From assembly GCA_023213235.1 (NCBI GenBank), contig CP096137.1, forward strand, positions 1,627,047 through 1,691,046: a stretch of 64,000 nt of DNA, written 5' to 3'. Both the position numbers and the translations under genes were made by a program. Shown in pieces: positions 10,339-35,009 of this stretch. The DNA is from Elusimicrobiota bacterium. Its GTDB lineage: Bacteria; Elusimicrobiota; Elusimicrobia; UBA1565; UBA9628. The first letter of the stretch is position 1; every line of letters begins with the position of its first letter. A model generated the notes under the pieces. It made no database searches. It was not told the origin of the DNA and saw only the letters and a list, made by a program, of their open reading frames with translations.

Positions 10339-11252
10339 ATGGTCCGTTCCTCGGAAGCGACGTTCGGCCTGGACGCGCGCGTCGAGGTTCTGTCGGTCCT
10401 GCAGCGGCTGGCGCGGCCGCCGGGCGCCGCGCCTCGCGGCGCCCGGGCCTACGCGGGCGCGATCCGCGCCCGCTTCGCCGCGTTCGCGGCTCATCCCGCC
10501 GTCGCCGCGCTGCGCGCGCTGCTGAGCGCGGGGAAGTCCGAGCCGCTGCTGACCGAGGTCGCGCTGCTTCTGCCCGACGCCGGCGGCCTGGCCGACGCCG
10601 AGACCTCGGCCTTTTCGCGCACGCGGCGGACTTCGCGAGCGCCTCGGGCGCCCGGAAGTTCTTCGACTCGCGGAAAAGGGATCGGACGGCCTTTCTCCGG
10701 CTCGCCGAGCGGGAGGCGGGGCGCGGCCAGAAGCCCGCCGAGGTCGAGGCGTACCTGCGGACTCCCTTTCCCGGCCGATGCCGCGTGATCCTCGCCCCGC
10801 TCCTGCCGCGGGAGTTCGCGGTGAACGTCTCGCGCGGCGGCGTCGAGACGCGCGTGCGCTGCGGCTCTTCCGGGTACGGGGGCAAGCTGACCTTCGAGCT
10901 CGACGCGTTCGACGCGTGCGTCGCCCATGAGCGCGTCCACACCGTCGTCGGGCCGCTCGTCGCCGCCTCGCGGGCGGCGTTCGAGGCTCTGCCCGGCCGG
11001 CCGCCCGCGACGTGCCGCGACCGGAGCTCCTGGGAGGGCTGCTACGAGGAGCACCTCGTGCGCGCGATCACGCTGCGCGCGCGCGGCGCGGCGCGCTCCC
11101 GCGCCGTTCTCGCGAGCTGGAGCCGTTCCGGCTATCCGTACCTGAGGCGGCTCTGCGCGGAGCTGGAAGGCTTCGAGGGCGCCGGGGGGACGACCCTCGC
11201 CGAGTTCCATCCCCGGTTGCTCGCGGCGTTTTTGTTAGAATCCCAGGCGTGA
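10339..11252 (+). CDS. DUF4932-like protein with HExxH motif (putative metallo-enzyme); frameshifted near 10610
   Basis: ORFs 10339..10788 and 10785..11252 are one gene split by a 1-nt frameshift. It contains CVAHERVHTVVGP (HExxH). It is homologous to two further copies in this window, at about 29597..30699 and 33640..35005. Confidence 0.5.
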
Positions 11253-12553
11253 AGCGGGACAAGAACCCGGCCTCCCTCGAGCGCGCCCAGGCCCTCTCCG
11301 ACGCGGGCGCGGTCGTCGAGGCCATCGAGGAGCTCGACCGCCTGATCGAGCTCGAGCCGAGCGCGGCGCTGCGCCTGCGCAAGACGCGCTTCCTGCTTCA
11401 GCGCAGGAACTACGTCGAGGCGGAGAAGGAACTCGAGCTCGTCGCGTCTTCGTCCCCGCGCGAGGCGGACCTTCCCCGGCTGCGCGCGGAGCTCTTCGTG
11501 ATGACCGACCGCCTTCCCGAGGCGCAGACGGCGCTCGAGGCGGCGCTGAAGGCCTCGCCCGCCGACGAGGACCTGCGCCTGCGCCGCCTGCGCGTGCTCG
11601 TCCAGCGCGGCTTCGAGAAGGAGGCGGCGGCCGAGAGCGCCTCGCTCGCGAAGGACGCAACGCCGCGCGGCCGGCTCGAGGCGCGGCTGTCCGGCGCCCA
11701 GCTCGCGCTCAAGAGCGGCGACCACCGCGGCGCCGAGAACGGCTTCAAGGCCCTGATGAAGGAGCTGCCGCAAGACGATCCCGTCTCGATGAAGGCGCGC
11801 CTGTACTGGGCGGCCTCGCGCGCCGTCGATCCCGAATTCCGCAGGAGGCATGGCATGGACGCGAACGCCCGCAAGCCGAGCAGGCTGTACCTGTGCGGCC
11901 TCGGCATCTTCCCGCCGTACACGGCCTCCCTTGAGGTGCTGCACGCGATCTCGACGTGCGACGTGATCTTCAACAACGTCGCCGGCCCGGAGACGCGCGA
12001 GGTGCTCGCCGAGTTCTGCGGCGACATCCGCCCGGCCTCCTACCAGGCGTGGCAGGACGAGCCGAAGTGGGCCGACCGCATCTTCGCGGAGCTCGACAAG
12101 GGGCGCACGGTCGGCTTCGTCACTCGCGGGCACCCGCTCGTCTTCGGGGGCCTCGCCGTCGAGCTCGTGCGCCGCTGCCACGCGAACAAGATCGACCACC
12201 GGACCTTCGGCGCGGTCTCCTCGATCGACCACCTCCTCGCCTACACGGGCAAGGGGCTCGGAGACGACTTCGGCGGCATCCAGGCGCTCGACCGCCCCGC
12301 GATCGAGAAGTCGAAGACCATGAACACGGCCGTGCCGCTGCTCGCGTGCTTCTACTCGGGCATGGAGGAGAAGGGCGAGGTCGCGAAGTTCCAGAAGAGC
12401 CTCGAGCGCTTCTACCCGAAGGAGCACCTGTGCTGGATGTTCGGACCGAAATACGACGACGCGCCCGCGACCGTGGCCGTCGGCGCGCTCGCCAAGACTT
12501 TTCCGACCGCGCACGCGAGCCTGATGCTGTACGTTCCGCCCCTGGGAAAATGA
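11249..12553 (+). CDS. TPR-repeat protein with C-terminal tetrapyrrole-methylase-fold (TP_methylase/diphthine-synthase-like) domain, paralog 1
   Basis: GTG start overlaps the upstream stop (GTGA). The N-terminal half has TPR-like helices. The C-terminal domain shows RLYLCGLGIFPPYTASLEVLHAISTCDVIFNN...GFVTRGHPLVFGG...FGAVSSIDHLLAYTG, which matches the TP_methylase beta-alpha-beta start motif (GLG in place of GPG, as in Dph5) and the GxPxxFG block. Confidence 0.6.
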   Translation: MKRDKNPASLERAQALSDAGAVVEAIEELDRLIELEPSAALRLRKTRFLLQRRNYVEAEKELELVASSSPREADLPRLRAELFVMTDRLPEAQTALEAALKASPADEDLRLRRLRVLVQRGFEKEAAAESASLAKDATPRGRLEARLSGAQLALKSGDHRGAENGFKALMKELPQDDPVSMKARLYWAASRAVDPEFRRRHGMDANARKPSRLYLCGLGIFPPYTASLEVLHAISTCDVIFNNVAGPETREVLAEFCGDIRPASYQAWQDEPKWADRIFAELDKGRTVGFVTRGHPLVFGGLAVELVRRCHANKIDHRTFGAVSSIDHLLAYTGKGLGDDFGGIQALDRPAIEKSKTMNTAVPLLACFYSGMEEKGEVAKFQKSLERFYPKEHLCWMFGPKYDDAPATVAVGALAKTFPTAHASLMLYVPPLGK

Positions 12554-14384
12554 AAGAGCTCGACTCCGACGGTCGCAGCTACCTGACCTGCCTGATCGGC
12601 CTGCCTCCGGGCGGGCGCGAGCGTTGGGAGAAGGCGCTGGCCGGGGCGAAGGGAAGCGCGCTCGCCGGGCGCGCGCTCGCGATGCTCGGCCGCGACGCCG
12701 AGGCTCTCGCCGTCCTCGACAAGGCCGTCGCGCGCGACGCGAAGGACGCCGAGGCCTGGGCCTGGCGCGGCGAGGCGCACCTGCTCGCCGGCCGGCTCGA
12801 TCCGGCGCGCCGCGACCTCGACCGCGCGGCCGAACTCGCGACGTCGTGGCCGTGGGCGCGCATCCTGCGCGCGGTCACGATGCTGTCGGTGGGGGACGTC
12901 GCCGGCGCCTCGGCCGAATTGGCGAAGACGGACGCGCCCGAGGCCGCCGTCGTCGCGGCCCTCGTCGAAGGCCAGCGCGGTCAAGCCGCGCAGGGCGTCG
13001 CGACCCTCGCGAAGGCCGACAGCGGCCCCGCCTACGCCGTGCGCGCGTTGCTCAAGCTCGGCCTGGGCGACCTGCCGGGCGGCCTCGCCGATATTCAAGA
13101 GGCGGCCAAGCTCGAGCCGTCGGCGTGGGTGCTCATGCGCCGGGCCGACGCGCTCAACCGCTCCGGCTTCTACCGCGACGCGCTCAAGGACGCCTTCAAG
13201 GCCGCCGAGCTTCTGCCCGGCGTGCCCGAGCCGCGCCTGCAGGCCGCGAACATCTACTTCGACCAGGCCTTTTACCCGGAGGCCCTCGAGCACATGGAGG
13301 CCGCGCTCGCCTGCTCGCCCGACGACGCGGCCCTGCTCGCGCGCCGCGCGCGCTTTCATCTCCTTCTCGGGAGGCTGGAGGAGGCCGAGGCCGGCCTCGA
13401 CCGCGCGCTGAAGTCCGCTCCCGGCGACGGCCAGCTCGTTTACGAGCGCCTCAACGTGATCGCCCTGCGCGGACGCTACGACGAGGTGCTCAAGGCCATC
13501 AAAAGGGCGCGTTGTCGGCGCCGTTCGACTCCTATCTGACCGCCTACGTGCTGTGCCGCAAGGGCGAGCGCGCCAAGGCCGTGAAGCCGTTTCTCGCCGC
13601 GGCCGCCGCGTCCGAGGGCGGGTTCGCCGAGCGCTGCCGCTTCTACGCGCTCGTCTGCCGCGTGCTGTCGGAGAAGCCGTCGGGCAAGCCCGTCAAGCAC
13701 CCGCAGTTCTACCTGTGCGGCGTCGGCATCCATCATCCCTACCAGATCACGACGGAGATCCTGCGCGCGCTCGACGCCTGCGAGGTCCTCTACAACAATC
13801 TCGGAGACCCGCAGGTCTCGGAGTTCCTCGGCCTCTTCGGCGCCGAGATCCGCGCGGTGACCCGCGTCGACAACGAGCCGGCGATGGGCCGCGTGCAGCG
13901 CATCATCGCGGGCCTGCAGAGGGGAAAGACCTCCGGGTTCGTCACGCGCATCCACCCGTTCATCTACCGCCGCATCGCCAACGACCTCGTCGTCGTCTGC
14001 GACGAGAAGAAGATCGACTTCAAGGCCTTCGGCGCCGTCTCGCTGACCGAGGTCGCCTGGGGCCTCGGCACCGCCGAGCCCGACCACGGCCCGGCGCGCG
14101 GCCCGTTCGGCCTGCGCGTCTTCGACCTCGTCCATCTGGTGAAGAACCCGTCCCAGCTCGATCACCGCCTCGCGACGATCGTCTACGCGATCGCCAACGA
14201 CGAGGACCGGCGGAGCTTCTGTCAATTGGTGCGGGAGAAGTACGACCCGGCGCGCACCGTCTACTTCCTGGCCGGCTCCGGCGACCGCGAGCAGCAGGTC
14301 GTGTCGGCGCCCGTGAGCCGGATCGAGGAGAAGCTCCTCTCGCTCGACCTCGGCACCGTGACCTATCTGCCCCCGGACCTTTGA
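12550..14384 (+). CDS. TPR + TP_methylase-fold protein, paralog 2; frameshifted near 13500
   Basis: ATG overlaps the previous stop (ATGA). TPR-like N-terminus in ORF 11956..13539. After a frame break at an AAAA run, ORF 12624..14384 continues: PQFYLCGVGIHHPYQITTEILRALDACEVLYNN...GFVTRIHPFIYRRI...FGAVSLTEVAWGLG. Confidence 0.55.
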
Positions 14385-14391
14385 GGAAAAC

Positions 14392-15875: not shown

Positions 15876-15877
15876 CG

Positions 15878-17473
15878 CATGACGCCGTGGCTCGGCGAGC
15901 CCGGCGGCCGCGCGGGGCGCGCCGCGCGCGGCGCCGCGTGGGCGCACGTCGACCGGGCCGCCGCGCTGTACGCGAAGGGCGACCTCGAGGGCGCCGGCCG
16001 CGAGGCCGACCTGTTCATCGGCAAGCTGCCCGGCGCCGCCGCCGGCCCCGCGATGAAGGCCCTGCTCGCCGCCCAGGCCGGAGACCGCGCCGGCGCCGAG
16101 CGCTGGCTCGAGGCCGCCGGCCCCGCGGGGCCCGTGGGCTGGACGCGCGCGTTGCGCGGACTGCTGCGCTCGCGCTGGGGGAGCTCGAGCTGGCGCGCGA
16201 GGACCTCGCCGCGACGCGCCTCGTCGAGCGCTCGGCGTGGGCGTGCGCGGAGCGCGCCGAGGCCTTCAACCGGTCGGGGCTGTACTGGAGCGCTCTGACC
16301 GAGCTCGACCACATGCGCCGCACGATGCCCGGCAGCCCGGAGCCGGACCTGCGCGCCTCGGCGATCCACCTCGAGCAGGCGCAGTACGAGGAGGCCGCGG
16401 CGCGCCTGGCGCGCGCCGCGAAGGCCGCGCCGCGCGACGCCGCGGTGCCGCGCCAGCTCTCGCGCGTGCGCTTCGTCGAGGGCGACCTTCCCGGCGCGCG
16501 CGCCGCGATCGAGCGCGCCGCGCGCCTGGCGCCCGGCGACGAGTCGATCCGCCGCGAGCTCCTGCGCCTGTGCGTCCTGCAGGACGACGCGAAGGCCGCG
16601 GAAAAGCTCCTCGCCGGAGCCTGGGGCCCCGGCGTGCGCGAGTTCTGGCGCGCCTACATGGCCTGCCGCGCGAAGCGCTTCGACGAGAGCGTCCGCCTCT
16701 TCAAGGAGGCGGCCGCGTCCGCCGATCCGTCGCTGTCCGCGACGGCCCGCTTCTATATCGTCGTCGTGCGGACCATCGCCGAGACCCCGCCCGCCCCGCC
16801 GCCGCCGCCGGGCCGGGAACTCCTCGTCATGGGCCTCGGCTTCCGGCACCCGTACCAGTCGAGCGTCGAGGTGATCCGCGCGCTCGTGTCCGCCGAGGAG
16901 TTCTTCAGCAACCTCTCCGACACCACGGTCGCCGACATGCTCGGCCTCTTCGGCTCGCCGATGCGCACGATCGTCTTCCGCCGCTCCGACGGGCAGTCGA
17001 CGGCCTGCGCGCGCATCGTCCTGCGCGGCATGAAGACGCTCAAGCGCGGCGCGGTCGTCACGCGCGGCATGCCGAGCTACTACGGCCGCCTGGCGTATCG
17101 CCTCGTCAAGGACTGCGCCAGGCTCGGCATCGCCTGCCGCATCCCGCCGTCGGTGGCGATCGCCGACTTCCTGCCCGCGCTCGCCGGCCGCAGCACCGGC
17201 ACGGCGCTCGGCTTCGAGGTGCGCGACACCAACGGGCTCGACGGCATGGACCCGCGCCTGCCCGCGATCGTCTACAACTTCTCCACCGACGGGCGCGCCG
17301 CGCAGGCGCGCCGCATCGCGGGGCTGTTCGCGCCCGAGGATCCGTGCTGGCTGATGGCCGGCTCCGGCTACTCCGAGTACGAGCCCGTCGAGACGACGAT
17401 CGCCGCGCTCGAGCGCGGGCTCATGGCCGCCGACTCGGCCGTGACCTTGCTGCTTCCCTCGAGAAAAGCGTGA
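15878..17473 (+). CDS. TPR + TP_methylase-fold protein, paralog 3; frameshifted near 16165
   Basis: ORF 15182..17473 carries TPR-like text followed by GRELLVMGLGFRHPYQSSVEVIRALVSAEEFFSN...VVTRGMPSYYGRL...IPPSVAIADFLPALAG. The upstream part (MTPWLGE...) is in the frame of ORF 14517..16298. Confidence 0.5.
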   Translation, partial: HDAVARRARRPRGARRARRRVGARRPGRRAVREGRPRGRRPRGRPVHRQAARRRRRPRDEGPARRPGRRPRRRRALARGRRPRGARGLDARVARTAALALGELELAREDLAATRLVERSAWACAERAEAFNRSGLYWSALTELDHMRRTMPGSPEPDLRASAIHLEQAQYEEAAARLARAAKAAPRDAAVPRQLSRVRFVEGDLPGARAAIERAARLAPGDESIRRELLRLCVLQDDAKAAEKLLAGAWGPGVREFWRAYMACRAKRFDESVRLFKEAAASADPSLSATARFYIVVVRTIAETPPAPPPPPGRELLVMGLGFRHPYQSSVEVIRALVSAEEFFSNLSDTTVADMLGLFGSPMRTIVFRRSDGQSTACARIVLRGMKTLKRGAVVTRGMPSYYGRLAYRLVKDCARLGIACRIPPSVAIADFLPALAGRSTGTALGFEVRDTNGLDGMDPRLPAIVYNFSTDGRAAQARRIAGLFAPEDPCWLMAGSGYSEYEPVETTIAALERGLMAADSAVTLLLPSRKA

Positions 17474-20400
17474 GCCGCGGGCGGGCCTGGGCGGCGGCGG
17501 CGCTCGCCTTGGGCGCCTTCTTCGCCGTCGCGGCGGCGACCTCGGTCCCGTTCGACGACAACTGGGGGCACGCGGAGGTCGAGAGCGGCGAGCTGCTGCT
17601 GCACGGCCGGACCGCGCCGCGCTTCAACGTGTCGTTCTCGATGCCGCTGACCTCCGTGGCCGCGGCGTGCCTGTTCGGCCATTGGGGCCTCGAGGGAGGG
17701 CGCCTGCTCTGGGCCGCCCTGCTCGCCGGCGTGCACGTCCTGGCCGCGTCCTTGGCGCTGGCGGCCGGCGGCTGGGCCGCGGCGGCCGCCGCGCTCGCGC
17801 TCGTCGCGCGCCTGTCCTGGGCCTGGGACATGTATCCGATGAACACGCTTTACGCGGCGGGCTTTCTGCTCGCGGCCGGCCTGCTCGTCCGGCGCGAGCG
17901 GGAGCCGGACGTCTCCAACGGGCTGCTGCTCGGCCTCGGCGTGGCCCTCAGCGTCCTGCTGCGCTCGCCGCTCGTGTTCTTCCCGTTCGTCCTGCTCGCC
18001 GCCGACCTCGCGCGCCCCCGCTCCTCTCGTCCCGGCGCGGCGGCCGCGCTCGCGCCCTGCTCGCGCCCGCCCTCCTGCTGCTGCCGTGGATCTGGATGAA
18101 TTGGCGGCTCCACGGGAAGTTCATGCCGCTCGAGGAGGGGCGCATCGAGGGGCTGCTCGCGGCGTCGATCGCCGGGGTCGAGAAGCCGAGCCACGTCAGC
18201 GGGTTCACGGGCTTCGGGGCCGGCCTCGTTCCCGGCCTCGCGGCGTGGGCCCGGGCGGCCGCCGCCTCGCCCTGGACCTACGCGGCCTCCTGCGCGGCGC
18301 GCGCCCGCTGGATGCTCGAGGGCCAGCCCCTGCTCTTCGCGGCGGCCGCCGCGGGCGCGTGGCTCGGCCGCGCGCGCGCCGAGGTCCGGGGCCTGGCCTT
18401 GCTCGCCGTCTACTACGCCGGCGTCCACTGCCTGATCGCGATCTCCGAGGCCTATCTCGTGCCGCTGTGGCCGCTGCTCGCCGCGCTCGGCGGCGCGGGC
18501 GCGGCGGAACTGCTGCGCCGGGTTCGCCCGGGAGCCTGCGCGCCGAGGCCGGAGCCGGCCCGGGCCGTCGTCCTCGCGCTCCTGGCGCCGGCGCTCGCGG
18601 CTGCGGCGTGGAGCCTGACGCTCGTCGTCCGCTATCCGGCGCGCGCCGCGGCGGCGGCCGAGACCGACGCGGCGGAGGAGGAGGCCTGGCCTCTTCTCGA
18701 CGAGGCGCGCCGGCTCCTGGCGCGCGGCGACGCTCGCGGCGCCGGCGAGCGCTACCGGCGCGCGGCGGCCCTGCGCCCGGGCGAGCGCCGCGTCGCGGTC
18801 GGCCTGGCCTGGACCCAGGCGCTCGCGGGCGCGCCCGCGCCCTGCTCCGGCTCAAGCCGCAGCCGCCGCGCGACGGCTTCGTGCCGCCCGCGTCGCTGTC
18901 CCTGCTGAAGGGCTCGGAGCTTCTCGCGCGCGGCCGGCGCCCGCAGGCTCTCGCGGAGATCCGGGCCGCGCTCGCCGCGTCGACCGGCAGACCGGCCCTG
19001 GACCCCATCGCGGAGTACCTGCCCTCGATGCCGCGCGGGCGGCGGGAGCTTCTCCTCTCCGCCCTGGCCGCCGAAGGCGCCGGGGGCGGCGGGGCTTCCG
19101 ACGCGGCGCTGGGCGCCGCGCGGGCGGCCCTGGAGCGCGGAGACCGCGCGGCCGCGCGCGCCGCCGCGCGCGCCCTCGAGAGCAGGCCCCTGCCCGTCGC
19201 GCTGGCCAAGGAGCTGTCCGACGTCCTGCTCGAGCTCGGGGACCGGGAGCGCGCCCTCTCCGTGCTTCTCGCGAGCGCGCGCCGGGATTCCGGCGACGCG
19301 CGCCCTTGGCTGCGCGCCGCGGAGCTCGCCGCCGAGCTCGGACGCCGCGCCGAGGCGCGCGAGGCCCTGGCCTCGGCGGCACGCGCGGCGCGGGGCGAGG
19401 ACGAGCGCATGCAGCTGGCCTTCGCCCTCGGCCGCGCCGGCGATCCGGCCGCCGCGCTGGACCTTCTCGACTCGCTCTCTCGGCGGCCGCCGCCGCAGCT
19501 CCTCGTCGAACGCGCGGCCTTCGAAGCCGAGGCCGGCCGCGCGGAGGCCGCTCTGCGCACGCTCGCCTCCGCCGGGCGCGTCGAAGACGGCCCGCACGCG
19601 CGCCGCGCGGGATTCCTGTACGCGCGCCTGGGCCGCTTCGACGAGGCGGCCGCGGTCCTCGACGCCGCGGGGGAGGCGTCCGCCGACCGCGCGGCGCTGG
19701 GGAATCTGCTGCTCGCGCAGGCCGAGAAGGCCGCTCGGGAGGGACGCCCGGCCGAGGCCCGCCGCCTGCTCGCCTCGAAAGCCGCCGCCCGCGGGCTCGA
19801 CGCGCGCCGCGCCGAGGTCCTTCTCGCGGGGCTCGACGCGCCGCCGCCGGCGCCGGTCCCGGCGGCCGTGCCGCCGCGCCCGCCGCCGCGCGACGAGGAC
19901 GCCGAGACCCGGCGGGAGTCGGCGCGCCTGGCGCGCGAGGGCCGGGTCGAGCCCGCGGCCGCCGCCCTCGAGGCTCTGCTGCGCCGGTCTCCCGCGGACG
20001 CCGCCGCCCGCGTCGAGCTCGCCGAGCTCCGCCGCCGTCAGGGACGCGCGGCGGACGCGCTCGCCGTCCTCGAGGCCGCGGCCAAGCCGCGCCCGGCTCC
20101 CGTCCTGGCCGCCCGGGCCTCGGCGCTGCAGGCGCTCGGCCGCCGCGCGGAAGCCGCGGCGGCTCTCGCCGAGGCCGAGCGCGCGGCGGGGGAGGACCGC
20201 GAGTCGCTTTTCTCGGTCGCGCACGGCTGGCAGTCGCTGGCGGAGTACGGCCGCGCCGACGCGGTCCTCACGCGCCTGGCCGCCCTGGCGCCGGGCTCGG
20301 CCGCGCCGCTGTCCGACCGCGGCCTCGTGCGGCATCTCGCCGGGCGCGAGGCGGAGGCCGCGGCCGACCTCGAGCGCGCGATCGCGCTCGAGCCGGACTT

Positions 20401-20557
20401 CCTGCCTCCGTACCTGACGCTCGGCGCGCTGCGCTCGGCCCAGGGGCGCGCGGCGGACGCCGCCCGCCTTTACGACGCGGCGCTCGCGCGGCCCTCGGCC
20501 GCCCGCGAGCCGGCGCTCAAGGCCCTGCTCGAGGGCGCGCGCCGGGCCGCCCGCTAG
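17470..20557 (+). CDS. Polytopic membrane protein fused to a long C-terminal TPR domain (glycosyltransferase-like topology); two frameshifts
   Basis: GTG overlaps the upstream stop. The N-terminal ~450 aa are hydrophobic (ORFs 16237..18099 tail and 17667..18908). The C-terminal ~570 aa are TPR-like (ORF 18086..20557). Frame breaks occur near 18050 and 18840. Confidence 0.45.
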
Positions 20558-20563
20558 CGCGCC

Positions 20564-25198: not shown

Positions 25199-25962
25199 CT
25201 CTTCTTCTTCGCCTTGCCGAGCGCCGCGACCGCCGGCCACTCCATCCAGATGTCGGTCAGGCCCGGCGCGCGGCGATCCTCCCGCTCCGCGTCGACGTGC
25301 CAGAGGCGCCAGTACGCCATGTAGCGGATCAGGTGCGAGAGGTTCTGCTCCTTGTCGTGGGCGAGCTGGTAGTGCAGCAGCACGGCGTCGCCGGCCTTGC
25401 CCGTGATCTGCACGGCCGGCGGCATCGCGATCTCGGCGTTGAGCCCGGCGCGGAGCTTGGAGGAGCCGTTCTTGGCGATGTACTCGGCGATCACGCGGTG
25501 CGTGCCGGGGTAGACCGCGAGGTTGCCCATGTAGCCCGAGGGCTGGTCGCTGAGGAGGACGCCGGCGAGCATCGTGAAGCGCGAGATCGTCTTGTTCGCG
25601 TTCGGCGAGTAGAATCCGTCGATGTGCGAGGCCGGGCCGCCGTGCGAGTTGTTGACCGACGGGAAGCGCAGGGCGATCTGCCCGGTCGACGGGCGCCGCA
25701 GAGCCCCGCGCCCGATCGGCGACTCGGCGAGCTCCCACAGCGGGCTCTTGAACAGCAGGTCCATGATCGCCGGCGCGTCGGTGTCGTCCGACCAGTAGTC
25801 GCGCGCGTCGGCGTATTTGTCCATCTCCTGCGTGCGGCCGCGGCCGAGGCGGTGGTTGATCTCCCTGAGCGCCTCTTCGACGAGCGCCCGCGGCACGAGG
25901 CCGGGCAGGACGACGTAGCCGTCGTCGCGCATCTTCTCCAGCTGGTTTCGGTCAAGTTCCAT
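25195..25962 (-). CDS. PhyH-family Fe(II)/2-oxoglutarate dioxygenase, copy 1
   Basis: Track ORF of 255 aa with a double-stranded beta-helix HxD...H facial triad (HIDGF ... HYQLAHD). Two paralogs follow head-to-tail. Confidence 0.65.
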   Translation of the reverse strand: MELDRNQLEKMRDDGYVVLPGLVPRALVEEALREINHRLGRGRTQEMDKYADARDYWSDDTDAPAIMDLLFKSPLWELAESPIGRGALRRPSTGQIALRFPSVNNSHGGPASHIDGFYSPNANKTISRFTMLAGVLLSDQPSGYMGNLAVYPGTHRVIAEYIAKNGSSKLRAGLNAEIAMPPAVQITGKAGDAVLLHYQLAHDKEQNLSHLIRYMAYWRLWHVDAEREDRRAPGLTDIWMEWPAVAALGKAKKKR

Positions 25963-26719: not shown

Positions 26720-27494
26720 CGGCGCGTCCTCATTCCGGGCCACTCGAGCCACGGGTCCTCCATCGCGCGGCGAAGGTATTCCGGCGAGCGGTCGTGCCAC
26801 GAGTCGACGTGCCAGAAGCGGAAGTACGCGGTGCGCCGGATGTGGGGAGAGAAGTTCGGCCCCTTGTCGTGCGCGGTCTGGAAATGGAAGAGCACGACGT
26901 CGCCCGCGCGGCCGGTGACCTCGGCCGGGGAGGAAGGCGCAGGGACTTCTCGAGGTCTCCGGCGAGCGCGGCGACGCCCTTCTCCGCGACCTTCTTCGCG
27001 ATCGCCAGGTGCGTGCCGGGGTACGCCGTGAAGTTGCCCATGCCCGGCTTCGGGACGTCGCTGAGGAAGACGCCCGCGCACAGCGAGTAGCGCAACGGCT
27101 TGCCGGCGCCGGTGCCGAGTCCGTCGAGGTTCGAGTACAGGCCGTCGACGTGGACGAGGCGCCGGTACTCGACGCCGTCGTGCGCGGCCGGGAAGCGCAG
27201 GACGATCTGCGCCTGGGACAGGGGCTCGACCTTGCCGCGCCCGAGCAGGGACTCGGCGAGCGCGCTCACGGGGCCCTTCGCGAGGTCCATGATCGCGGGC
27301 GAGGAGACGTACTCCGAGAGATAGTCGAGCTTGTCGGCGTAGCCGTCCCTGCCGGGGTGCGAGCCGGAGCCGAGGCGGTGATTGATCTCCCGGACGGCGC
27401 GGTCGACGCGCTCGCGCGGCACGAGGCCGGGCACCACGACGAAGCCGTCGCGGCGCAGGCGCGCGCGCCGGTCGGGGCTAAGCGCCGCGGCCAT
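26716..27494 (-). CDS. PhyH-family Fe(II)/2OG dioxygenase, copy 3; frameshifted near 26940
   Basis: N-terminal part lies in ORF 26730..27767 (MAAALSPDRRARLRRDGFVVVPGLVP...HVDGLYSN). The C-terminal part lies in ORF 26716..27081 (VVLFHFQTAHDKGPN...). The start overlaps paralog F's stop. Confidence 0.55.
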
Positions 27495-28962
27495 GTCCCA
27501 TCCATACGGGGAAGAGGTGCTCGTTGGAGGCGCGCACGCCGCGCCCGAGCGCCAGGCCCGCCTCGAGCACGGCGCGCAGGGCCTCCTGGTCGGCGGAGTC
27601 CGCGGGCGCCTTCCCGGCCCGCTTCTCGAAGAAGTCCAGCACGTCGCGGCGAATCGTCGCGTAATCGCTCCACGCGCCGGCGGCGTCCCCGGACGCCGAG
27701 CGAGCGAGCGCGCGGTTGGCCAGCGCCCAGAAGGAGTTGGAGCCGTCCTGCCGGATCGCGGCGCCAAGGTCCTCGATCGCGCCGGCGAAGTCGCCGCGGC
27801 GGCGGCGCAGCTCGCCGCGCCAGGTCAGGGCCTCGGCGTCGGGGCCGGAGCGCAGCGCCTCGTCGAGGTCGGCCGCGGCCTCGTCGAGCCGGCCGGACAG
27901 CAGCAGGGCGGCGCCGCGCGGCCGCAAGGTCTGCGGGATGCCCGCGCCGACGGCGGCGTCGAGGTCGGAGAGCGCCCCGGCGGCGTCGCCGGCCCACAGG
28001 CGCAGGCGTCCGCGCACGGCGAGCGCGGCCGGGCGCTTTCGCTCCGGCATCGAGGCGACGAGCTCGTCGGCGCGCGCGGCGGCGGCCTTCTCGTCGCCGC
28101 GGCACAGCGCGATCTCGGCGAGCGCCGCGCGCGCCTTCCAGAAGCCGGGGACGGAGGCCAGCGCCGCCTTGTACTCGCGCTCGGCGCCCTCGTGATCGCG
28201 CCGGTTGGTCAGCAGCAGCTCGCCGTGCTTGTGGCGCATCCACTGGTGCTTCTTCGGCGCCTTGGCCAGGCGCTCGGTCTCGAGGATGGCCTCCTCGCCG
28301 CGGCCCATGTTGCTGAGCACCGAGGCCAGGAAGTAGCGCGGCCACGGGTCGGCGGGCTTGGCCGCGGCGCGGGCCTTGAGCCCCTCGAGCGTCGGGAGGA
28401 GTTCGGCCCGGTCGGGCGTGATGAAGAAGGAGTCGATGCACTCCTGCGTGCCCTGGTCGGCGAGCAGGGAGTCGGCGTGCTTGAACGCGGCGGCCCAGTC
28501 GCGCAGGCGCACGAGCGCCTGGAAGCGCGTCACCCCGGAGGCGAGGCGAGCGTGCGCGCCGCCGGACGCGGCCCGGCCGGAGCTCGCGGCCGCCGCCGGG
28601 TCGCCGGCGCGCAGCCGCAGGCTCGCGAGGCTGTCGCGCAGGGAGGCGTCCTTCGGCTTCAGCGCGAGAGCGGCCTCGTAGGCGGCGATCGCCTCGGAGA
28701 CGCGGCCCTGCAGTCCGAGGATCTCGCCGAGTCCGGCCTGGGCGGCGGCGTCCTTCGGCCGGCGCTTCGCGCAGTCGAGCGCGGAGGCGAGCGCGCCCTC
28801 CGGGTCTCCGGAGAACTGCTTGGCGTGCGCGAGCCAGACCGCGGCCCGGGAGGAGGCGGGGTCTTTCGCGAGCGCCGCCTCGAACTGCGCGCGGGCCTCG
28901 GCGTAGCGGCCGGCGTTGAAGTGCTCCAGGCCGAGCTCGAGCGGCTTGGCGGCCTTGGTCAC
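27478..28962 (-). CDS. TPR-repeat protein, paralog F (C-terminus ...LALGRGVRASNEHLFPVWMGHGRGA)
   Basis: 3' end of ORF 27478..31674. GTG at 28962 (VTKAAKPLELGLEHFNAGRY) overlaps the stop of the upstream gene (GTGA). Confidence 0.5.
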   Translation of the reverse strand: MTKAAKPLELGLEHFNAGRYAEARAQFEAALAKDPASSRAAVWLAHAKQFSGDPEGALASALDCAKRRPKDAAAQAGLGEILGLQGRVSEAIAAYEAALALKPKDASLRDSLASLRLRAGDPAAAASSGRAASGGAHARLASGVTRFQALVRLRDWAAAFKHADSLLADQGTQECIDSFFITPDRAELLPTLEGLKARAAAKPADPWPRYFLASVLSNMGRGEEAILETERLAKAPKKHQWMRHKHGELLLTNRRDHEGAEREYKAALASVPGFWKARAALAEIALCRGDEKAAAARADELVASMPERKRPAALAVRGRLRLWAGDAAGALSDLDAAVGAGIPQTLRPRGAALLLSGRLDEAAADLDEALRSGPDAEALTWRGELRRRRGDFAGAIEDLGAAIRQDGSNSFWALANRALARSASGDAAGAWSDYATIRRDVLDFFEKRAGKAPADSADQEALRAVLEAGLALGRGVRASNEHLFPVWMGHGRGA

Positions 28963-29599
28963 GGCGCGGGCTCCCGGGGCGCGGCCTCGACGGCGCGCAG
29001 GTCCTTCTCGAGGTCGGCGGCGCGCGAGCGCCCGGCGGCGTCGAGGCCGCTCTCGCGGGCGGCGGACAGCGCCGCGCGCGCCTCGTCCGCGCGGCCGGCG
29101 CGCAGGGCGGCGGCCGCCTCCGCGAGGCTGTCGCGCAGAAGCGGCCTCGAGGCGTGGCCCGAATTCCTTCAGGCCGCGCGGGCCGCGCTCGTATTCCTTG
29201 AGGCGCTCGGCGACGGCGGCCAGGCGCGGCACCCGCGAAAGCTCGGGGTCCTGCAGGGCGCGCTCGTACGCGCGCTCGCCGAGATCGAGGGCCAGCGCGC
29301 GCAGGACGACGGCCAGCGCGAGCGTCCGGCGCGCGGAGGCCGCCCGCGGGCTCAGCCAGCCGAGAGACTCCTCCGTCAGCGTCACGGCCGGCGACCGCGG
29401 CAGGCGCTCGAGCGCGGGCTCGCCGGCGGGCACGACGACGCGGCGCGTCCCGCCGAAGGAGACGCCCATGTAGGCGGCGGCGGCCTCGGGCGGGGGTCCG
29501 CGGCGCGCGCGCGCGGCGGCCTCGGCGAGGACGGCGTCGCCGCCGGGTGCTCCCGGCGCCAGCGCGAAGACGAGGACGACGGCCGCGGGAGCGCTCATC
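28959..29599 (-). CDS. Secreted hypothetical protein (signal peptide MSAPAAVVLVFALAPGAP); frameshifted
   Basis: ATG overlaps the DUF4932-D stop (ATGA). It ends ...LRAVEAAPREPAP* in a third frame, overlapping paralog F's GTG. Confidence 0.35.
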
Positions 29600-30699
29600 G
29601 GGAGAGCCTCGCCGCGAGCGCCGGATCGAAGAAGTCGGCGACGCGTCTGACGCGCGGCTCGGAGGGGACGGAGGCCTGCGCCGCGCGGCCGCCGTGAGCG
29701 AGCTCGTGGAACACGGAGAGCAGGCGCGGCATGAAGGTCCAGAGGTCCGGCCAGCGGCGGCGGTCGCGCTCGTACTCGCCGAGGCGCGCGTCGAGCGCCT
29801 CGAGCGTCCGGCGTTCGCGTTCGGCGGCGGGCGGCCCGCTCGGGCCGGCGCCGCGCGCCTTCTCGAGCCGGGCGGCGAGCGCGAGGGCGACGAGGTGCTT
29901 GGCGCAGTCGACGCCCGCCTCCGCGCGGCGGCAGGCGGCGATCTCCGCGCCGTAGAAGTCCGCGGGCGCGCGCGTTGCGCGCGTCGAAGTAATGGAACGC
30001 GGGGTCGAGGAATACGTACAGCGGCTCGTGCCAGACGGCGACGGGCGCCATCGCCTCCGCGGGGCCGGCGGGCAGCGTGTAGGCGTCGAAAGCGGAGACG
30101 CCCATCGCCGCCGGCGGGAGAGGATAGGGCAGGATGAAGGCCCGCGTCTGCCGCGCGAGAAGCGGCAGGAGGACGCGCGACCGAGCCGACAAGCCCAGGC
30201 CGAGATAGGCTTCGAGCTCCGCGACCGGATCGGCGCCGAGCCGGCGCCGCGCGGCCTCCTCGGCCTCGCGGTAGCGGGAGGCGTTGGCCGCGAAGAAGGA
30301 CGCGAAATCCGAGACGCGGGCGAAGTCGCGCAGCTCCCACAGGAAGCGCTGCGTCTCCTCGGCGCGCCCGGGACCGTTGATGTAATGGATGTCGGCGTCG
30401 GGGGACAGCAGTGGCAGCTCCGGCGGCGGCCCGTAGTAGAGCAACAGGACGGCCGCGGCCTCCTCGCGCTCCGGGTCGGCCGCGAAGCCCTTGTACAGCT
30501 CGACGGCGGGATGGGAGCGAAGTCGCGAGAAGCGCTTCTCGATCGCGGCGCGGTACGGAGCGACGTCGTCGCCGTCGCGCGCGGCGCCCGCGAGCAGGCG
30601 CACGACGCCGAGCAGCTCCAGGCGGGGATCGACCGAGACGTCGAGCGGCGCGGCGAGGCTCGGCGCGGCCAGGAGCAAAGCCAGCGCGGCGGCGATCAC
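29597..30699 (-). CDS. DUF4932-like secreted protein, copy D (HExxH degenerate); frameshifted near 30020
   Basis: GTG gives a signal peptide (V/M)IAAALALLLAAPSLAAP. Reads LDVSVDPRLELLGVVRLLAG...IEKRFSRLRSHPAVELY, which parallels 10339..11252. The C-terminus is recovered in the +1 frame (FYGAEIAACRRAEAG...ALAARLSR*). Confidence 0.4.
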
Positions 30700-31835
30700 C
30701 GGGGGCTCCCGCCGCGGCGCGCGCCTGCTCCTCCGTGATCGCGCGCGGGTCGGACGACTCGACGGGGGAGGGAGGCCCATCGCCCGCGCCCACGGCAGAA
30801 GCTTCGCCCCGCCGTCCGGCCGCGCGGGGACCGCGTAGCCGGCGGCGCGCATCCACCCGGCGTTGAGGTGGGGATCGGAGCGGCGGCAGCCGCGCCCGGC
30901 CTTCAGCGCGGCCTCGCACAGCTCGCGTATGCGCTCCGCGGCGAGCGGCGACGCCGAGGCGGACTCGATCTCGGAGGTGTTCAGGTACAGGCAGGCGAAA
31001 TCCTTCCACGCGCCGAGAAGGTCCTTCTCCTCGAGCCGGAGCAGCGCGCGGTTGACGCGCGCCCACGGCTTGTTGCCGCTGATCGCGATGACGTCGGCCA
31101 GGTCCTTGAGCGCCCCGTCGCGGTCGCCGAGCAAGCGGCGCAGCTCTCCGCGCCAGACCAGGCCCTCGGGGTCGTGCGGGTCGATCTCGAGCAGGCGGTC
31201 GAGGTCGCGCTTGGACTCCTGGAGCCGGCCGAGGCGGCACAGCGCCCCGCCGCGCCAGCACAGCGCGTCGGGGTTGTCCATCGCGGCGGCCATGTCGAGG
31301 TCCTTGACCGCGGGCTCGTACTCGCCCCACCAGAGCTGCAGCGCGCCGCGCCAGGCGAGGAACGCCGACTTGCCGCTCTCGGGGACGGAGACCGCGCCGC
31401 GCACGGTCTTGAGCGGATCGGCGTGGCCGACGGCCATGAGGTTCTCGGCCCACAGGCAGCGGGCCTCCCACAGCCACGGGCATTTGGCGGCCACGGCCTG
31501 GATCTCGCGCGCGCGAGCTCGTAGAGGTCGAGGCGGCGCAGGAGAATCTCGGCGATGTAGTAGCGCATCCAGTAGAAACGCGGCGACGTCCGGCTTCCCT
31601 CGCCGAGCAGGCGCAGGGCCTCGAGGTCTCGGCCCGCGCCCCATTCGAGCGAGGCGAGGCAGAACTGGCGCCACGGGGCGGGAAGCGCCTCGGCCTCGCC
31701 GCGGCGGAAGTCGGACTTCAGGAACAGGTCGCGCAGCTTGCGGTAGGTCGCCGTCGGCTCGGAGTCGAACGACGCGTCCCAGCGCGCGAAGGCGTCCTTG
31801 TACGTCGACGACCCGAAGTGGTCCTGGACGGGCAT
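30696..31835 (-). CDS. TPR-repeat protein, paralog C (shorter; carries ...NKPWARVNRALLRLEEKDLLGAWKDFACLY... tail); frameshifted
   Basis: ATG at 31835 (MPVQDHFGSSTYKD) in ORF 30981..31907, then the frame of ORF 27478..31674. The terminal TGA overlaps DUF4932-D's GTG. Confidence 0.4.
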
Positions 31836-31839
31836 GGGC

Positions 31840-33580
31840 TCAGCGCTTCTCCGGGATGAAGAACGTCGACGCGGGATCCAAATCCTTCTCTTTGGACCGC
31901 AGGTCACCGACGGTCAGGCGCACGCGCGTCTCCTCGCGGTAGCCGTCGCCGCACTTGAGCGCGTGGACGGGATGCGCCGCTCCGTAGGTCTTCGCGAGCG
32001 CGTCGGCGAAGGCCGCGTAGCGGTTCTCCTCCATGACGCGGTTGACGCCGAGGACGATCGCGCCGCGGCGCGGGTCGAGCGCTCCGGCGTCCTCGACGAC
32101 GGAGCGCGCGTTCTGCACCGTGAAGCCGCGCTCGCACAGCTCGAGGTCGTCCTGCAGCATCGTCAGGATCCCGTCGATCGAGGAGGGGCGGTCACGACGC
32201 GGTACTCGTAGCCCGCTTCCTTGCAGCGCTTGGCCATCATGTTGCCTTCACCGAAGAGCATCGGGTGGCCGTAGGTGACGTAGGCGGTCTGAAGGCCCTT
32301 GTCGAGATCGGCGCGCACGGCCTTCCACGTCGCGCCCTGCGGATCGGCGCCGCGGCCGGAGGCGGTCGGGATCGTCTTGAGGCCCGGGTACACCGCCTCG
32401 AGGAGCTCTCGCACCTCGCGCGTGTCGTTCTGCGTGTACGCGGAGCCGCAGCGGCGCAGGGCCATGATCGTGTTCAGCGTGATCTCGTACGGGCGCTCGA
32501 TGCCGACGCCGAGAAGCCACAGGCGTCCGGCTCCGGCCTTGGGCGCGGCCGTCTTTTTCGTCTTGGGTTCCTTCATGATCTGGTCTCCGGCGGCGGCGGC
32601 CTCGAAGGCCTCGAACAGCTTGGCGCGCTCGGGTCGCCCCGCCGACTCCTTGCGCGCCGCGACGAAGCGCGCGAGCGCCTCCTTCGGGCGTCCCGCGGCG
32701 AGCTCGGCGCGGCCGAGCTGATACTCGAGCTCGGGGCCCTTGAAGCCGGCGGCCGCCGCGGCCTCGAGTTCGGCCCGAGCCTTCGCGGCCTCGCCGAGCG
32801 AGAGAAGGACGAGCGCGCGCTCGAAGCGCAGGGACGCGGCGCCGTTGGCCAGCGGCAGCGCGCGGTCGAGGTCGGCCAGCGCGCCCGCCCAGTCGCCGAG
32901 GCGCGTGCGCAGATAGGCTCGGTCGGTCAGCGGCTTCGGCGAGCGCGGCGCGAGCGCGGCCGCGCGCTCGAAGTCCTTTTCGGCGGCGGCGAAGTCGCTG
33001 CGGCCGGCCAGCACGACGCCGCGCAGGCAGAGCAGCTCCCAGTCGGAGGGGAGCACGGAGATCGCCTTGCCGAGAGCGGAGTCGATCTCGGCGTCGGGAC
33101 GGGAGGAGGGCCCGCCGCCGCCGTGCGAGACGCGGTCGACGGCCTCCTTGAGCCGCGGCAGCCAGGCCGCCGCGGTGGCCGCGTCCATCTCGCGCTCCAG
33201 CGCCCGGAGGCGCTCGGCCTCGGTCAACCGAGCCCCTTGAGGCGCTTCTCGACGGCGGCGCGCTGGTCCCACTCGGGCGGCGCCAGCTGCAGCGCGCGGG
33301 CGAGGTCCTCCTTGGCCTCCTTCGTCTTCTTGGCCTTCTCGTGCAGGCTCGCGCGCGAGGAGAGCGCGGCCGCCGCGGCCGCGCGCGTCTGCGGGGAGGG
33401 GATTTCGAGCGAACGCGCGATCGCCTTCTCGTAGGCGGCCAAGGCCTTGGCGTCCTTGCCCGTCGCCGACCACGCGGCCGCGGCGTTGATCAGGGACTCG
33501 ACGTCGTCCGGCGCTTCGGCGAGCGCGGCCTCGAACTTCTTGAGGGAGCCGGCCTTGTCGCCCTTGAGAAAGGCCTTCAT
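31840..33580 (-). CDS. TPR + TP_methylase-fold protein, paralog 5; about three frameshifts
   Basis: ORF 33224..33580 (MKAFLKGD..., TPR-like) joins ORF 32163..33725 (...GRLWLLGVGIERPYEITLNTIMALRRCGSAYTQN...YVTYGHPMLFGEG), which joins ORF 31840..32160 (the C-terminal subdomain). Confidence 0.5.
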
Positions 33581-33639
33581 GCCCTCCTCGTTGAGCTTCT
33601 TGAGGGAGGCCGGCCGCTCGTAGGCGTTCTCGCGCCCGG

Positions 33640-35005
33640 GCGGCGCCTTTCGACGGGCCCGGAGGGCCCGGGCGACGGCGAGGACGCGGCCGGCGCGGCG
33701 AGCACCTTCCGGGCGCCCTCGTCATTCGGGCGCAGCGCGAGCACGGCCTTGGCGTCGGCGACGGCCTCGTCGCGGCGGCCGAGGAGGTGGCGCAGGCACG
33801 CGCGCTTGAGTAGGAGGCCCGGGTTCTTCGAGCGCTCGAGCATCAGGTCGAGGTACCACAGCGCGCGCTTGCGCTGGGCGTCGGTGTAGAAAGGCATCGC
33901 GTTCTCGACGATCCAGTCCCGGTACGGGTCGCCCTCGCGGTCGAGCGGCCGGGACGGGCCCTTCGGCGCGGGCAGCACGTCGAGCAGGCGCGGGTAGAAG
34001 TCGGCGAAGGTCGGGTACTTTTTGCGGTCCTTCTCGTACTCGGCGACGCGTTCCTTGAACGCGGCCAGGTGCGGAAGCCCGCACTCCGTCTCGTGGCGCA
34101 GCTCCTCGTCGGAGTAGGCCTGGCTGACCTCGTGCCAGACCATGCGCAGCATCGCGGTGCGCACCATGTGCTCGCGCACGTGGTGCATCCAGTTCTGGTA
34201 CTCGCGCGAGGGCTCGCGCGCCGCGGGCTGCTTGCGCGCGATGTCCTCGCCATAGAGCTCGGTCACGTTGTCGAGCACGCCGTGCGCGGCCTCGTGCCAG
34301 ATGCGCGGGTGCAGGCGCTTGTAGGTGCACTTGATCGGCCCGCCCGGCGGGGAGCTCGATGGGCCCGAGCACCGAGATGATGTCGGCCAGGCCGTCCTCG
34401 CCGCGCTGAACGATGTTGGCGCCCGTGTCGGACTGGACGAACGGGGTGAGCACGAACGCGTAGCGGCCCTCGAACGGCAGGCCGCAGTACTTCTCGATCT
34501 TGCCGATGTGGTCGTTTTCCTCGAGCTCCTCGCGCAGGGCGGCGAGGTCGGCGTCGAGCAGCTTGACGTTCTTGTCGAAGAACTCCTGGAACCGCGCGTC
34601 GCGCGCGAAGTCGCGCATGTCCTGGAGGAAGGCCGCGAGGTGCTCCTCGCCGCCGACGTAGTGCGCGAGGAAGGAGATCGAGATCTGCGTGGAGGGGGCG
34701 AGTTCCGGCAGCGGCGAGAGGCGCATGAGCCCCTGGCCGCGCTGGCCGAGGTCGAAGGCGCGGAAGCGGGCCTCGGCGCGGCGCTTGATCGCCGGGTGCT
34801 TGGCGTGCGGCGCGAAGTACTTCCGCGCCTCGCGCACGTAGGGGATGTCCGGGCACATGAAGTCGGTCGCGTGCGCCTTTCCCTCGGACCCCTTCGTCAG
34901 GTCGTAGGCGAGGAGCTCCATGACGCCGTCGAGCTCGAGCCGGGGGTCGACGAAGAACTCGAGCTTGCTCGCGGCTTTGGGTTTGGGCTTGGTCGCGGGC
35001 GCCAC
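33640..35005 (-). CDS. DUF4932-like protein with intact HExxH (IWHEAAHGV), copy 2; frameshifted near 34330; possibly fused to paralog 5
   Basis: ORF 33722..35005 (FFVDPRLELDGVMELLAYDL...) continues in ORF 33577..34278 (PIKCTYKRLHPRIWHEAAHGVLDNV...). No stop separates it from the MKAFLKGD start at 33580. Confidence 0.45.
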
Positions 35006-35009
35006 GGAG

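Follow-up and report, generated by a model that had tools for sequence, protein, structure and literature searches.

The question raised by this locus is what a dense array of TPR proteins, joined to methylase-like domains, dioxygenases and putative metallopeptidases, might act upon in an Elusimicrobiota bacterium. The array lies in a 64,000-nucleotide stretch (hereafter, the window) of contig CP096137.1 (assembly GCA_023213235.1, positions 1,627,047 to 1,691,046 of the forward strand), where an initial annotation, made from the letters alone, had placed its end at 35005. Conserved partner genes continue to ~45179, and the reading that we favor, as somewhat probable from sequence comparison, is that 10339 to ~45179 is an intact, conserved Elusimicrobiota multi-enzyme locus that would tailor a peptide or protein substrate. 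Our best reading is also that the system is lineage-restricted. The architecture had been noted as undescribed, and our literature search agreed, finding no paper on it but only the 'type X' borosins (TPR-TM-GGDEF-NMT, NMT being N-methyltransferase). Borosins are classified as types 0-XI, and a TPR region has been reported only in type X. No paper linking borosins with Elusimicrobia was found in the literature search.

The G+C content of the window is 65-80%, so that lists of open reading frames (ORFs) were uninformative here, and coding frames were assigned by frame plots of G+C at third codon positions (GC3). Five genes encode TP_methylase-like domains, hereafter NMT domains:

11249..12553, plus strand: TPR-NMT class B, 434 aa, intact; N-terminal TPR region of ~200 aa and C-terminal NMT domain at 11867-12544
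12550..14384, plus strand: TPR-NMT class C, ~611 aa; frame break at ~13500-13504 in an AAAAGGG run; intact orthologs of 611-622 aa
14392..15042, plus strand: standalone NMT-like class D, 216 aa; orthologs of 216-225 aa
15036..17473, plus strand: atypical SDR ('epimerase')-TPR-NMT class E, ~812 aa; frame break at ~16176-16181 in a GGGGG run; intact orthologs of 807-816 aa
31840..33251, minus strand: TPR-NMT 'G', PF00590 39.5 bits; frame break near 32190 in a GGGG run, with the domain halves in two frames

Pfam and local hidden Markov models (HMMs) placed the domains at 11867-12544, 13689-14378, 14389-15015, 16802-17467 and 32534-31843, with a pairwise identity of 23-28% among the five. Five TPR-fused methylases and one standalone copy had been counted at first; the standalone copy was recovered, but the family HMM and six-frame translation gave only four fused ones. 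A sixth domain was ruled out, as none appeared in a six-frame hmmsearch of the window. The TPR-methylase fusions as such were recovered in these four proteins, although the N-terminal short-chain dehydrogenase/reductase (SDR, epimerase) of one had gone unmentioned.

Next, we compared the NMT domains with known structures. The profile search of the PDB used a domain-only alignment, as the full-length alignment gave overwhelmingly TPR matches. The domain-only profile matched borosin methyltransferases over the full domain length (E-values of 1.7e-13 for dbOphMA, ~1e-11 for OphMA, 6e-11 for MroMA and 2e-9 for SonM), whereas the E-values for diphthine synthase, SUMT and CbiF lay between 2e-6 and 1e-4, with most of these matches confined to the N-terminal half. 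Class B and G scored 48.1 and 39.5 bits against PF00590 (gathering cutoff 27.8), and class C, D and E were clearly homologous to B by the family HMM (E 1e-75 to 1e-97). In an alignment of 228 domains (OphMA numbering), most family members carried G16 (221), G18 (225), G99 (204), H100 (180), P101 (194), S129 (208) and D132 (165), and the GHP loop reads 'TRGHPLVFGG' in the family and 'FYGHPGVF' in OphMA. The comparison showed that the NMT domains have the two-subdomain alpha/beta TP_methylase fold, and that their nearest relatives by sequence and structure are the borosin peptide alpha-N-methyltransferases. The TP_methylase-like nature first proposed for the C-terminal domains, with fold and motif positions common to OphMA and other TP_methylases, was thus confirmed; their supposed diphthine-synthase-type hallmarks were not, the nearest relatives being neither diphthine synthase nor the tetrapyrrole methylases. 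The database label 'precorrin-3B methylase' (JGI), given to some family members, is probably wrong, and the labels 'TadD' and generic 'SAM-dependent methyltransferase' (SAM, S-adenosylmethionine) are uninformative for the family. The latter label is carried by the NCBI entry identical (100%) to the class B protein, from Elusimicrobiota bacterium.

The paralogs differ in fixed positions of the conserved motifs, as follows:

Class B: R before GHP, G-H-P, F at position 104, S at 129, D at 132
Class C: R before GHP, I-H-P, Y at position 104, S at 129, E at 132
Class D: W before GHP, G-[H/N/Q]-P, S at position 104, S at 129, G at 132
Class E: R before GHP, G-[Q/H/M]-P, Y at position 104, S at 129, D at 132

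D was the most divergent class, and G was the sole NMT of the window with Tyr before GHP, as in OphMA Y98. Judged by their sequences, B, C, D and E are old, separately maintained classes with fixed signatures and orthologs in other genomes, rather than modules diversifying by duplication as had been suggested. They look more like distinct subunits or sequential steps. Since the solved borosin NMTs are mostly dimers, a heteromeric pairing of NMT classes would be a reasonable inference by analogy.

We then analyzed related loci in other metagenome-assembled genomes (MAGs; loci are given as L numbers). The core operon, DUF4932 followed by TPR-NMT (B), TPR-NMT (C), NMT (D) and SDR-TPR-NMT (E), recurs intact in other MAGs, with gene products of 430-468 aa (TPR-NMT), 611-637 aa (TPR-NMT), 216-225 aa (NMT) and 807-816 aa (SDR-TPR-NMT) in related contigs. 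A long TPR-NMT gene followed by a D-class standalone NMT gene was observed in several loci (e.g. L001, L005 and L025), and wherever a locus has an SDR gene or domain, it comes next after the D gene. SDR is a separate gene in L004 (286 aa), L024 and L025. The class E SDR scored 73.7 bits against PF01370 and kept the NAD(P)-binding motif TGxxGFIGS. Two peptide patterns of class B, a scan biased to close relatives, matched 17 GTDB species genomes, all 17 being Elusimicrobia MAGs. At an E-value cutoff of 1e-30 an exhaustive profile search gave 172 clusters, and at 1e-10 it gave 799; most family clusters have long N-terminal extensions, which contained TPR in the ten that were scanned.

The window holds three DUF4932 genes:

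10339..11252, plus strand: DUF4932a (PF16286), HERVH at 10926-10940; frame break near 10615 at a TTTT run; L001 and L006 orthologs 50-57% identical
29595..30700, minus strand: DUF4932b, degenerate copy with HEPLY in place of HExxH and EEH lost; frame break near 30010
33224..35068, minus strand: DUF4932c (PF16286), HEAAH at 34282-34296, DUF4932 part at 33964-35068 and C-terminal TPR region; frame breaks near 34340 and 33700; ortholog in L001

The initial count of three DUF4932-like proteins, two with HExxH, held, and one extra C-terminal remnant (29140-29337, HMM positions 238-305) was detected within a TPR protein, T3. The two halves of DUF4932c scored 46.7 and 37.0 bits (cutoff 28.7), and the N-terminus of DUF4932b is signal-peptide-like by eye. 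HExxH and a downstream EEH were invariant in 14 DUF4932 homologs, and the window copies a and c, but not b, keep both. Modeling suggests a gluzincin-like HExxH fold for the domain. A PDB sequence search with DUF4932 gave no match, and our literature search found no paper describing it. A relationship to the aKG-HExxH enzymes was rejected, as hhalign showed none beyond the motif itself. The stop codon of DUF4932a overlaps the class B start as GTGA; DUF4932 lies directly 5′ of the NMT operon in the window and L006, and four copies follow the operon in L015. Furthermore, single-chain TPR-NMT-DUF4932 fusions occur in other genomes (P0090, 994 aa; P0192, 819 aa). DUF4932 is genuinely linked to the NMT genes.

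The partner genes beyond 35005 are as follows:

35629..38843, minus strand: giant W-rich TPR protein, ~1070 aa, a conserved member of the system; frame break near 36000
39134..40924, plus strand: SGNH/GDSL-like domain with TPR, accessory; weak PF13472 match, the GDSL gene of L001 being ~32% identical
40983..42560, plus strand: 525-aa polytopic membrane protein with an A24-like N-terminal domain (DWKEQKI.N, WPAGD.KLF)
42560..43906, plus strand: aKG-HExxH-type peptide beta-hydroxylase, HEFCH; TIGR04267 (IPR026337) E 1.4e-31, 109.8 bits, cutoff 40
43930..44502, plus strand: X190, conserved ~190-aa protein; homologs in L005, L019 and L026
44496..45179, plus strand: QueC-like PP-loop ATPase, SGGFDSS; PF06508, TIGR00364 69.8 bits against a cutoff of 150.3

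The giant TPR protein is collinear with a 1096-aa protein of L026 (38.7% identity across 870 aa, rising to 52.6% in the final 114 aa). In the A24-like homologs, D31 and G103-D104-x-K106-L107 were invariant, and the window protein has an extra C-terminal region of ~350 aa; a PDB sequence search with the A24-like domain gave no match. Sequence scores place the ATPase as a QueC-family paralog, not QueC itself. No specific NCBIfam model was found for the NMT, PhyH, DUF4932 or X190 proteins. Homologs of the A24-like gene are co-located in L005, L021, L025 and L026, aKG-HExxH adjoins NMT genes in L019, L021, L023, L025 and L026, and the QueC-like ATPase is found also in L005, L021, L023, L025 and L026. 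Identity to the L005 copies was 30% (A24-like), 55% (aKG-HExxH), 34% (X190) and 51% (QueC-like). The most compact arrangement examined, L026, holds D-NMT, TPR-NMT-DUF4932, the 1096-aa TPR protein, A24-like, aKG-HExxH, X190, QueC-like and WM-tail TPR genes on one strand within 12 kb, and local HMM scans found the same partner types in L005, L019, L021, L023 and L025. The partners (aKG-HExxH, QueC-like, A24-like, giant TPR and WM-tail TPR) thus co-occur with NMT in several Elusimicrobia loci, in one of them at an NMT identity of ~30%. Conserved synteny across MAGs and the single-chain fusions support functional coupling of these enzymes.

The window also holds three dioxygenase genes and four TPR genes of a further paralog family, named for its WM-ending tail:

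20564..22989, minus strand: T1, WM-tail TPR protein, RAFWDPWEWD at 21470, ending in RGFRREEYGQAIWMD and a stop; frame break near 21775
22962..25214, minus strand: T2, WM-tail TPR protein, ~750 aa, RAFWDPWEWD at 23865, ending in RGYRREEYRQAIWMT and a stop
25195-25962, 25952-26695 and 26716-27510, minus strand: three tandem PhyH-like Fe(II)/2-oxoglutarate dioxygenases, the third broken at ~26925 in a GGGG run
27478..29577, minus strand: T3, DUF4932 C-terminal remnant, TPR and WM-tail module, ending in VWMGHGRGA and a stop
30757..31868, minus strand: T4, short WM-tail-module TPR protein; frame break near 31500, no stop right after WM

The four TPR paralogs share a homologous C-terminal module of 300-345 aa (35-50% identity, BLASTP E 1e-22 to 4e-83), and three of them end in WM plus 1-8 residues before the stop. 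Four paralogs with a RAFWDPWEWD...WM tail had been described; the common C-terminal module is indeed present in four, but RAFWDPWEWD was found in two only. Orthologs of T2 with the same tail occur in L002, L006 and L011, and the tandem WM-tail proteins end in RG[FY]RREEYxQAIWM[D/T/A] in the window and these three loci and in ALWMR in L005. A large-database search with the WM tail gave no matches. The initial reading of three tandem PhyH genes was borne out: the two copies scanned scored 32.6 and 34.8 bits against PF05721 (cutoff 22), a local PhyH-like HMM matched all three, and HxD...H was kept in all three translations (HIDG/HVDG and AHDK). A PhyH ortholog in L002 is 37-40% identical and lies directly upstream of two WM-tail-module genes. 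In a PDB sequence search with PhyH, only SnoK was matched (E 0.87).

Peptide or protein modification is the best homology-based reading of these genes, because the nearest relatives of the NMT domains are borosin NMTs and an aKG-HExxH RiPP hydroxylase (RiPP, a peptide made by the ribosome and modified after translation) lies in the conserved neighborhood. We propose a mechanism in which the TPR domains would serve as docking sites for the substrate or keep the enzymes assembled. The four fixed NMT classes would be distinct, possibly heteromeric subunits, B and G being the most canonical and C, D and E partly degenerate, and the substrate would be methylated with SAM. The aKG-HExxH and PhyH enzymes may also hydroxylate it, DUF4932 and the A24-like protein may process it proteolytically, and the QueC-like enzyme may activate a carboxylate.

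This proposal shares several features with known systems. The borosin NMTs (OphMA/dbOphMA, MroMA and SonM) share the TP_methylase (class III) fold with the present family, match it best in sequence and structure, and carry the G-x-G loop and the '..GHP.VF' and 'VS..D' motifs found here; types 0 and XI likewise place NMT at the C-terminus of a larger protein, and type X has a TPR region. In contrast to borosins, a single operon here encodes four fixed paralog classes, an atypical SDR is joined to one class and DUF4932 to others, and the present family was found so far only in Elusimicrobia MAGs, in a pattern scan biased to close relatives. Other TP_methylases (diphthine synthase, CobA/SUMT, CobJ and RsmI) share the fold and the general SAM-binding motifs. 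The characterized aKG-HExxH enzymes all act on RiPP precursors, which they hydroxylate (PMC12636437, PMC13060819), and the pathways of ChlH, BpmH, PflC/PosC and nitrilobacillin resemble the present locus, where the conserved partner scored above the TIGR04267 cutoff. In the nitrilobacillin (pes) cluster, the aKG-HExxH hydroxylase stands beside an ATP-dependent asparagine-synthetase-like enzyme that converts the C-terminal carboxylate to a nitrile (PMC13060819). The partner there is asparagine-synthetase-like; here it is a QueC-like ATPase. However, unlike these RiPP pathways, the window has no radical SAM or MNIO partner, and no short precursor was found. The type IV prepilin peptidase PilD (A24) both cleaves the leader and N-methylates the N-terminus so exposed. 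The A24-like Asp motifs of the membrane partner, and the functional parallel to a protease plus N-methyltransferase, recall it; the match is below the Pfam threshold, however, the ~350-aa C-terminal region is extra, and no pilin-like substrate motif was found in the window.

Several results weigh against the proposed tailoring locus. Class C, D and E domains scored 22.6, 22.8 and 26.6 bits against PF00590, below the gathering cutoff, and are altered within conserved motif positions. The borosin catalytic residues (OphMA Y63/Y66, R72 and Y76; SonM Y58, R67 and Y71) are not conserved. The stretch equivalent to OphMA R72/Y76 (SonM R67/Y71) is a gap in 219-227 of the 228 domains, the alignment being uncertain in this loop, and Arg occupies the positions aligned to OphMA Y63 in 176/228 and to Y98 in 181/228. 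The SonM mutant R67A has no activity, nor has the double mutant Y58F/Y71F, and Y93F is only mildly impaired (PMC8429565). The field's criterion for borosins sets the BorosinMT HMM against PF00590. By its sequence, the NMT domain belongs to the borosin-like branch of the fold, yet the residues examined in the catalytic-residue test are absent. Similarly, the SDR lacks ~40 central residues including YxxxK in 8/8 orthologs, leaving it short of the catalytic residues; one DUF4932 copy (b) lacks HExxH; and the A24-like domain reached at best 21.6 bits (E 3e-4) against Pfam PF01478, which hit 3/3 homologs below its 26.5-bit threshold. A search of the window and related loci for short conserved ORFs or repeat-rich precursors gave none, and no core peptide was identified. 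No borosin-binding domain (BBD) was found near the genes, where no BBD HMM was applied and TPR stands at the N-terminus instead, and no transporter was found near the NMT genes. Finally, all sequences come from uncultured MAGs. The initial idea of TPR scaffolds paired with modifying enzymes therefore stands as to coupling, which synteny and fusions support, but with the borosin catalytic residues absent its chemistry is putative.

Candidates for a precursor were examined individually. X190 was rejected, as it is conserved end to end. Two small ORFs that overlap, encoding 93 and 97 aa, separate the SDR gene from the TPR-NMT gene after it in L024 (21320-21891; L014 has an identical pair); they resemble an antitoxin/toxin pair by eye and were set aside. 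A type IV pilin-like gene (KKSGFTLIELMIVVAIIG) was observed in L019 (5211-5255), ~5 kb upstream of the NMT genes. This was the only prepilin-like motif in all fetched loci, and none was found in the window.

If the enzymes are active as proposed, the locus would be of interest for several reasons. Backbone N-methylation is valued in peptide drugs, and according to the borosin literature, no ribosomal route to peptides with N-methylated backbones is known other than borosin-type enzymes. The family extends the borosin-like clade into a poorly studied phylum, with a different active-site make-up and four paralog classes that co-evolve, and is hard-wired to DUF4932 (a putative metallopeptidase), an aKG-HExxH hydroxylase and a QueC-like ATPase. 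Active enzymes could reveal a new recognition logic, with TPR in place of the BBD, or a new methylation chemistry or target, and could give the first function for DUF4932. The analysis also corrects database labels, and treats the apparent pseudogenes as assembly errors.

Alternatively, the NMT-like domains may be active SAM-dependent methyltransferases on other targets: side chains, amines or carboxylates at a terminus, or small anionic molecules that are not peptides. We consider this unlikely, though deserving of serious attention. The absence of the borosin Tyr/Arg/Tyr loop is consistent with it, and the two family arginines at the Y63 and Y98 positions, R261 and R293 in class B, could accommodate an anionic group. 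The conserved partners include a QueC-like enzyme that would activate carboxylates, and the RODEO borosin paper states that precursor-less clusters may be 'homologous non-borosin TP methylases'. However, both sequence and fold place peptide N-methyltransferases as the nearest relatives, the partner genes (aKG-HExxH, gluzincin-like and A24-like) belong to peptide-directed families, and no tetrapyrrole or 7-deazapurine genes (QueD, QueE, TGT) turned up in the window segments scanned.

It is quite improbable that the locus is instead a TPR-based structural or regulatory assembly, in which many of the enzyme domains are pseudoenzymes retained for binding, without any pathway of covalent modification. 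An SDR that lost YxxxK in all orthologs and kept its NAD(P)-binding motif would fit such an assembly, as would the motif changes of C, D and E, the degenerate DUF4932 copy, the failure to find a substrate gene and the large share of coding capacity taken by TPR. Nevertheless, the B and G domains retain all conserved motif positions, two DUF4932 copies keep HExxH and the downstream Glu, the PhyH genes keep HxD...H, and aKG-HExxH scored far above its curated cutoff. Motifs kept across ~30%-identical lineages argue for catalysis.

A substrate may also be sought among the whole proteins of the locus. PflC and PosC recognize a conserved C-terminal tetrapeptide, ARMD (PMC12636437), and the likeness of this tail to the QAIWM[D/T/A] ends of the tandem TPR proteins here is only suggestive. 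The WM-tail proteins are speculative candidate substrates. We hold it very doubtful, but worth stating, that their WM tails would be captured by the TPRs and oxidized by aKG-HExxH/PhyH (with possible cleavage at Ala to give a C-terminal amide, the reaction of PflC and PosC at ARMD), that the carboxylate or amide would be converted by the QueC-like enzyme (e.g. to a nitrile), and that an Arg-lined NMT heteromer would N-methylate the product. If true, this would be a previously unknown protein C-terminal modification family, made by a TPR-scaffolded enzyme assembly. The WM tail is no more conserved than the rest of its module, and the WM-tail genes are absent within 10 kb at some loci; both weigh against these proteins as substrates.

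It is highly unlikely that the locus modifies a glycan or lipid of the cell envelope, the methyltransferases then having sugars as substrates. Such a role would account for the presence of an epimerase/GDP-mannose dehydratase family domain (the SDR 'epimerase'), GDSL-TPR (GDSL/SGNH) proteins and a membrane protein with C-terminal TPR, and a GT2 gene lies nearby in L025. On the other hand, catalytic residues are missing from the SDR, the compact conserved core of L026 does not include the GDSL, GT2 and membrane-TPR genes, and the conserved partners are peptide-directed families. To our knowledge, no TP_methylase-fold enzyme methylates sugars, which counts further against it.

The remaining question is whether the genes are intact. 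Frameshifts had been noted initially, and ~14 frame changes were counted in 9300-36050, the coding frame shifting repeatedly along the window, even within domains, in the GC3 frame plots. Seven of the 14 break sites inspected lie at G/A/T runs of at least 4 (GGGG, GGGGG, AAAA/GGG and TTTT), in the P-type ATPase, DUF4932a, C, E, PhyH3, G and DUF4932c genes; the other seven have no long run. tblastn with intact orthologs put each window break at a single point, and in the two breaks tested, a one-base insertion at 13504 (class C) or at 16176 (class E; one G) restored ortholog-collinear ORFs. GC3 holds at 0.9-1.0 through the breaks, and intact syntenic operons are present in L001, L002, L004, L006, L011, L015 and L017. 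An unrelated copper/heavy-metal P-type ATPase at 7988-10296 (YHS, HMBD, E1-E2_ATPase and HAD) is likewise split into two frames, at a GGGG run at ~9300, which supports assembly indel errors across the contig. Because of the homopolymer sites, the one-base repair, the intact orthologs and the split ATPase, the frame breaks are, on this sequence evidence, taken to be single-base homopolymer assembly errors of a long-contig MAG, not pseudogenization. That the region is decaying debris of an expanded paralog family, as the number of frame changes might suggest, is therefore extremely improbable, given also the intact orthologs of the C, E and DUF4932 genes and of the giant TPR gene. The fear that the frameshifts were genuine and intact homologs lacking was not borne out.

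GC3 analysis assigned plus-strand genes to 7988-20557 and minus-strand genes to 20564-38879. In the coding segments scanned, Pfam gave the order of split P-type ATPase, DUF4932, TPR+TP_methylase, TPR/TP_methylase, standalone TP_methylase and epimerase/TPR+TP_methylase, then a membrane+TPR protein, two long TPR proteins, three PhyH, and TPR and DUF4932 genes, and at the end a further TPR+TP_methylase, DUF4932+TPR and the giant TPR protein. The overlapping stops and starts reported to chain the genes were confirmed, with junctions of GTGA, ATGA or ATGGTGA. One further gene adjoins class E:

17470..20557, plus strand: polytopic membrane protein with a C-terminal TPR region (translation and TPR matches); frame breaks near 18050 and 18830

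This protein gave two short matches to the 1205-aa product of the gene after the L001 operon (48% over ~105 aa at the C-terminal end and ~30% over ~130 aa), and its membrane part had no significant Pfam or NCBIfam match. The TPR-rich genes at 18000-24000 reach a G+C of ~0.79-0.81, compared with ~0.65-0.72 at the window ends; Ala, Arg, Leu and Gly-rich repeats prevail there, and long spurious ORFs occur in all six frames. Between DUF4932c and the giant TPR gene, a 167-aa protein (35010-35513, minus strand) is rich in Pro and Thr in its N-terminal region, and its body is helical and Lys-rich; no family match and no ortholog were found for it.

Other loci carry additional genes near the NMT family. 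In L024 (14523-19691) and likewise L014, two gene pairs encoding an FGE-sulfatase domain and a di-haem CCP_MauG lie inside the NMT operon, and in L004 CCP_MauG genes lie upstream; the FGE-sulfatase/CCP_MauG pairs may be a further protein-oxidizing accessory module. Radical SAM genes occur near TPR-NMT/DUF4932 genes in L001 (1149-2501, with a B12-binding domain) and L025 (6217-7128).

Beyond the locus, a lipid or polyketide-like gene group, apparently with frame changes, occupies 46069-55520 on the minus strand:

46069-46998, minus strand: FabD-like acyltransferase
47315-48121, minus strand: Ser/Thr kinase
49452-50732, minus strand: class I/II aminotransferase
51821-53287, minus strand: acyltransferase + 4′-phosphopantetheinyl transferase fusion
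54174-55520, minus strand: ketoacyl synthase

On the other side, the minus strand at 5855-7348, upstream of the P-type ATPase, encodes a TolC-like efflux protein of the outer membrane (OEP, in two repeats).

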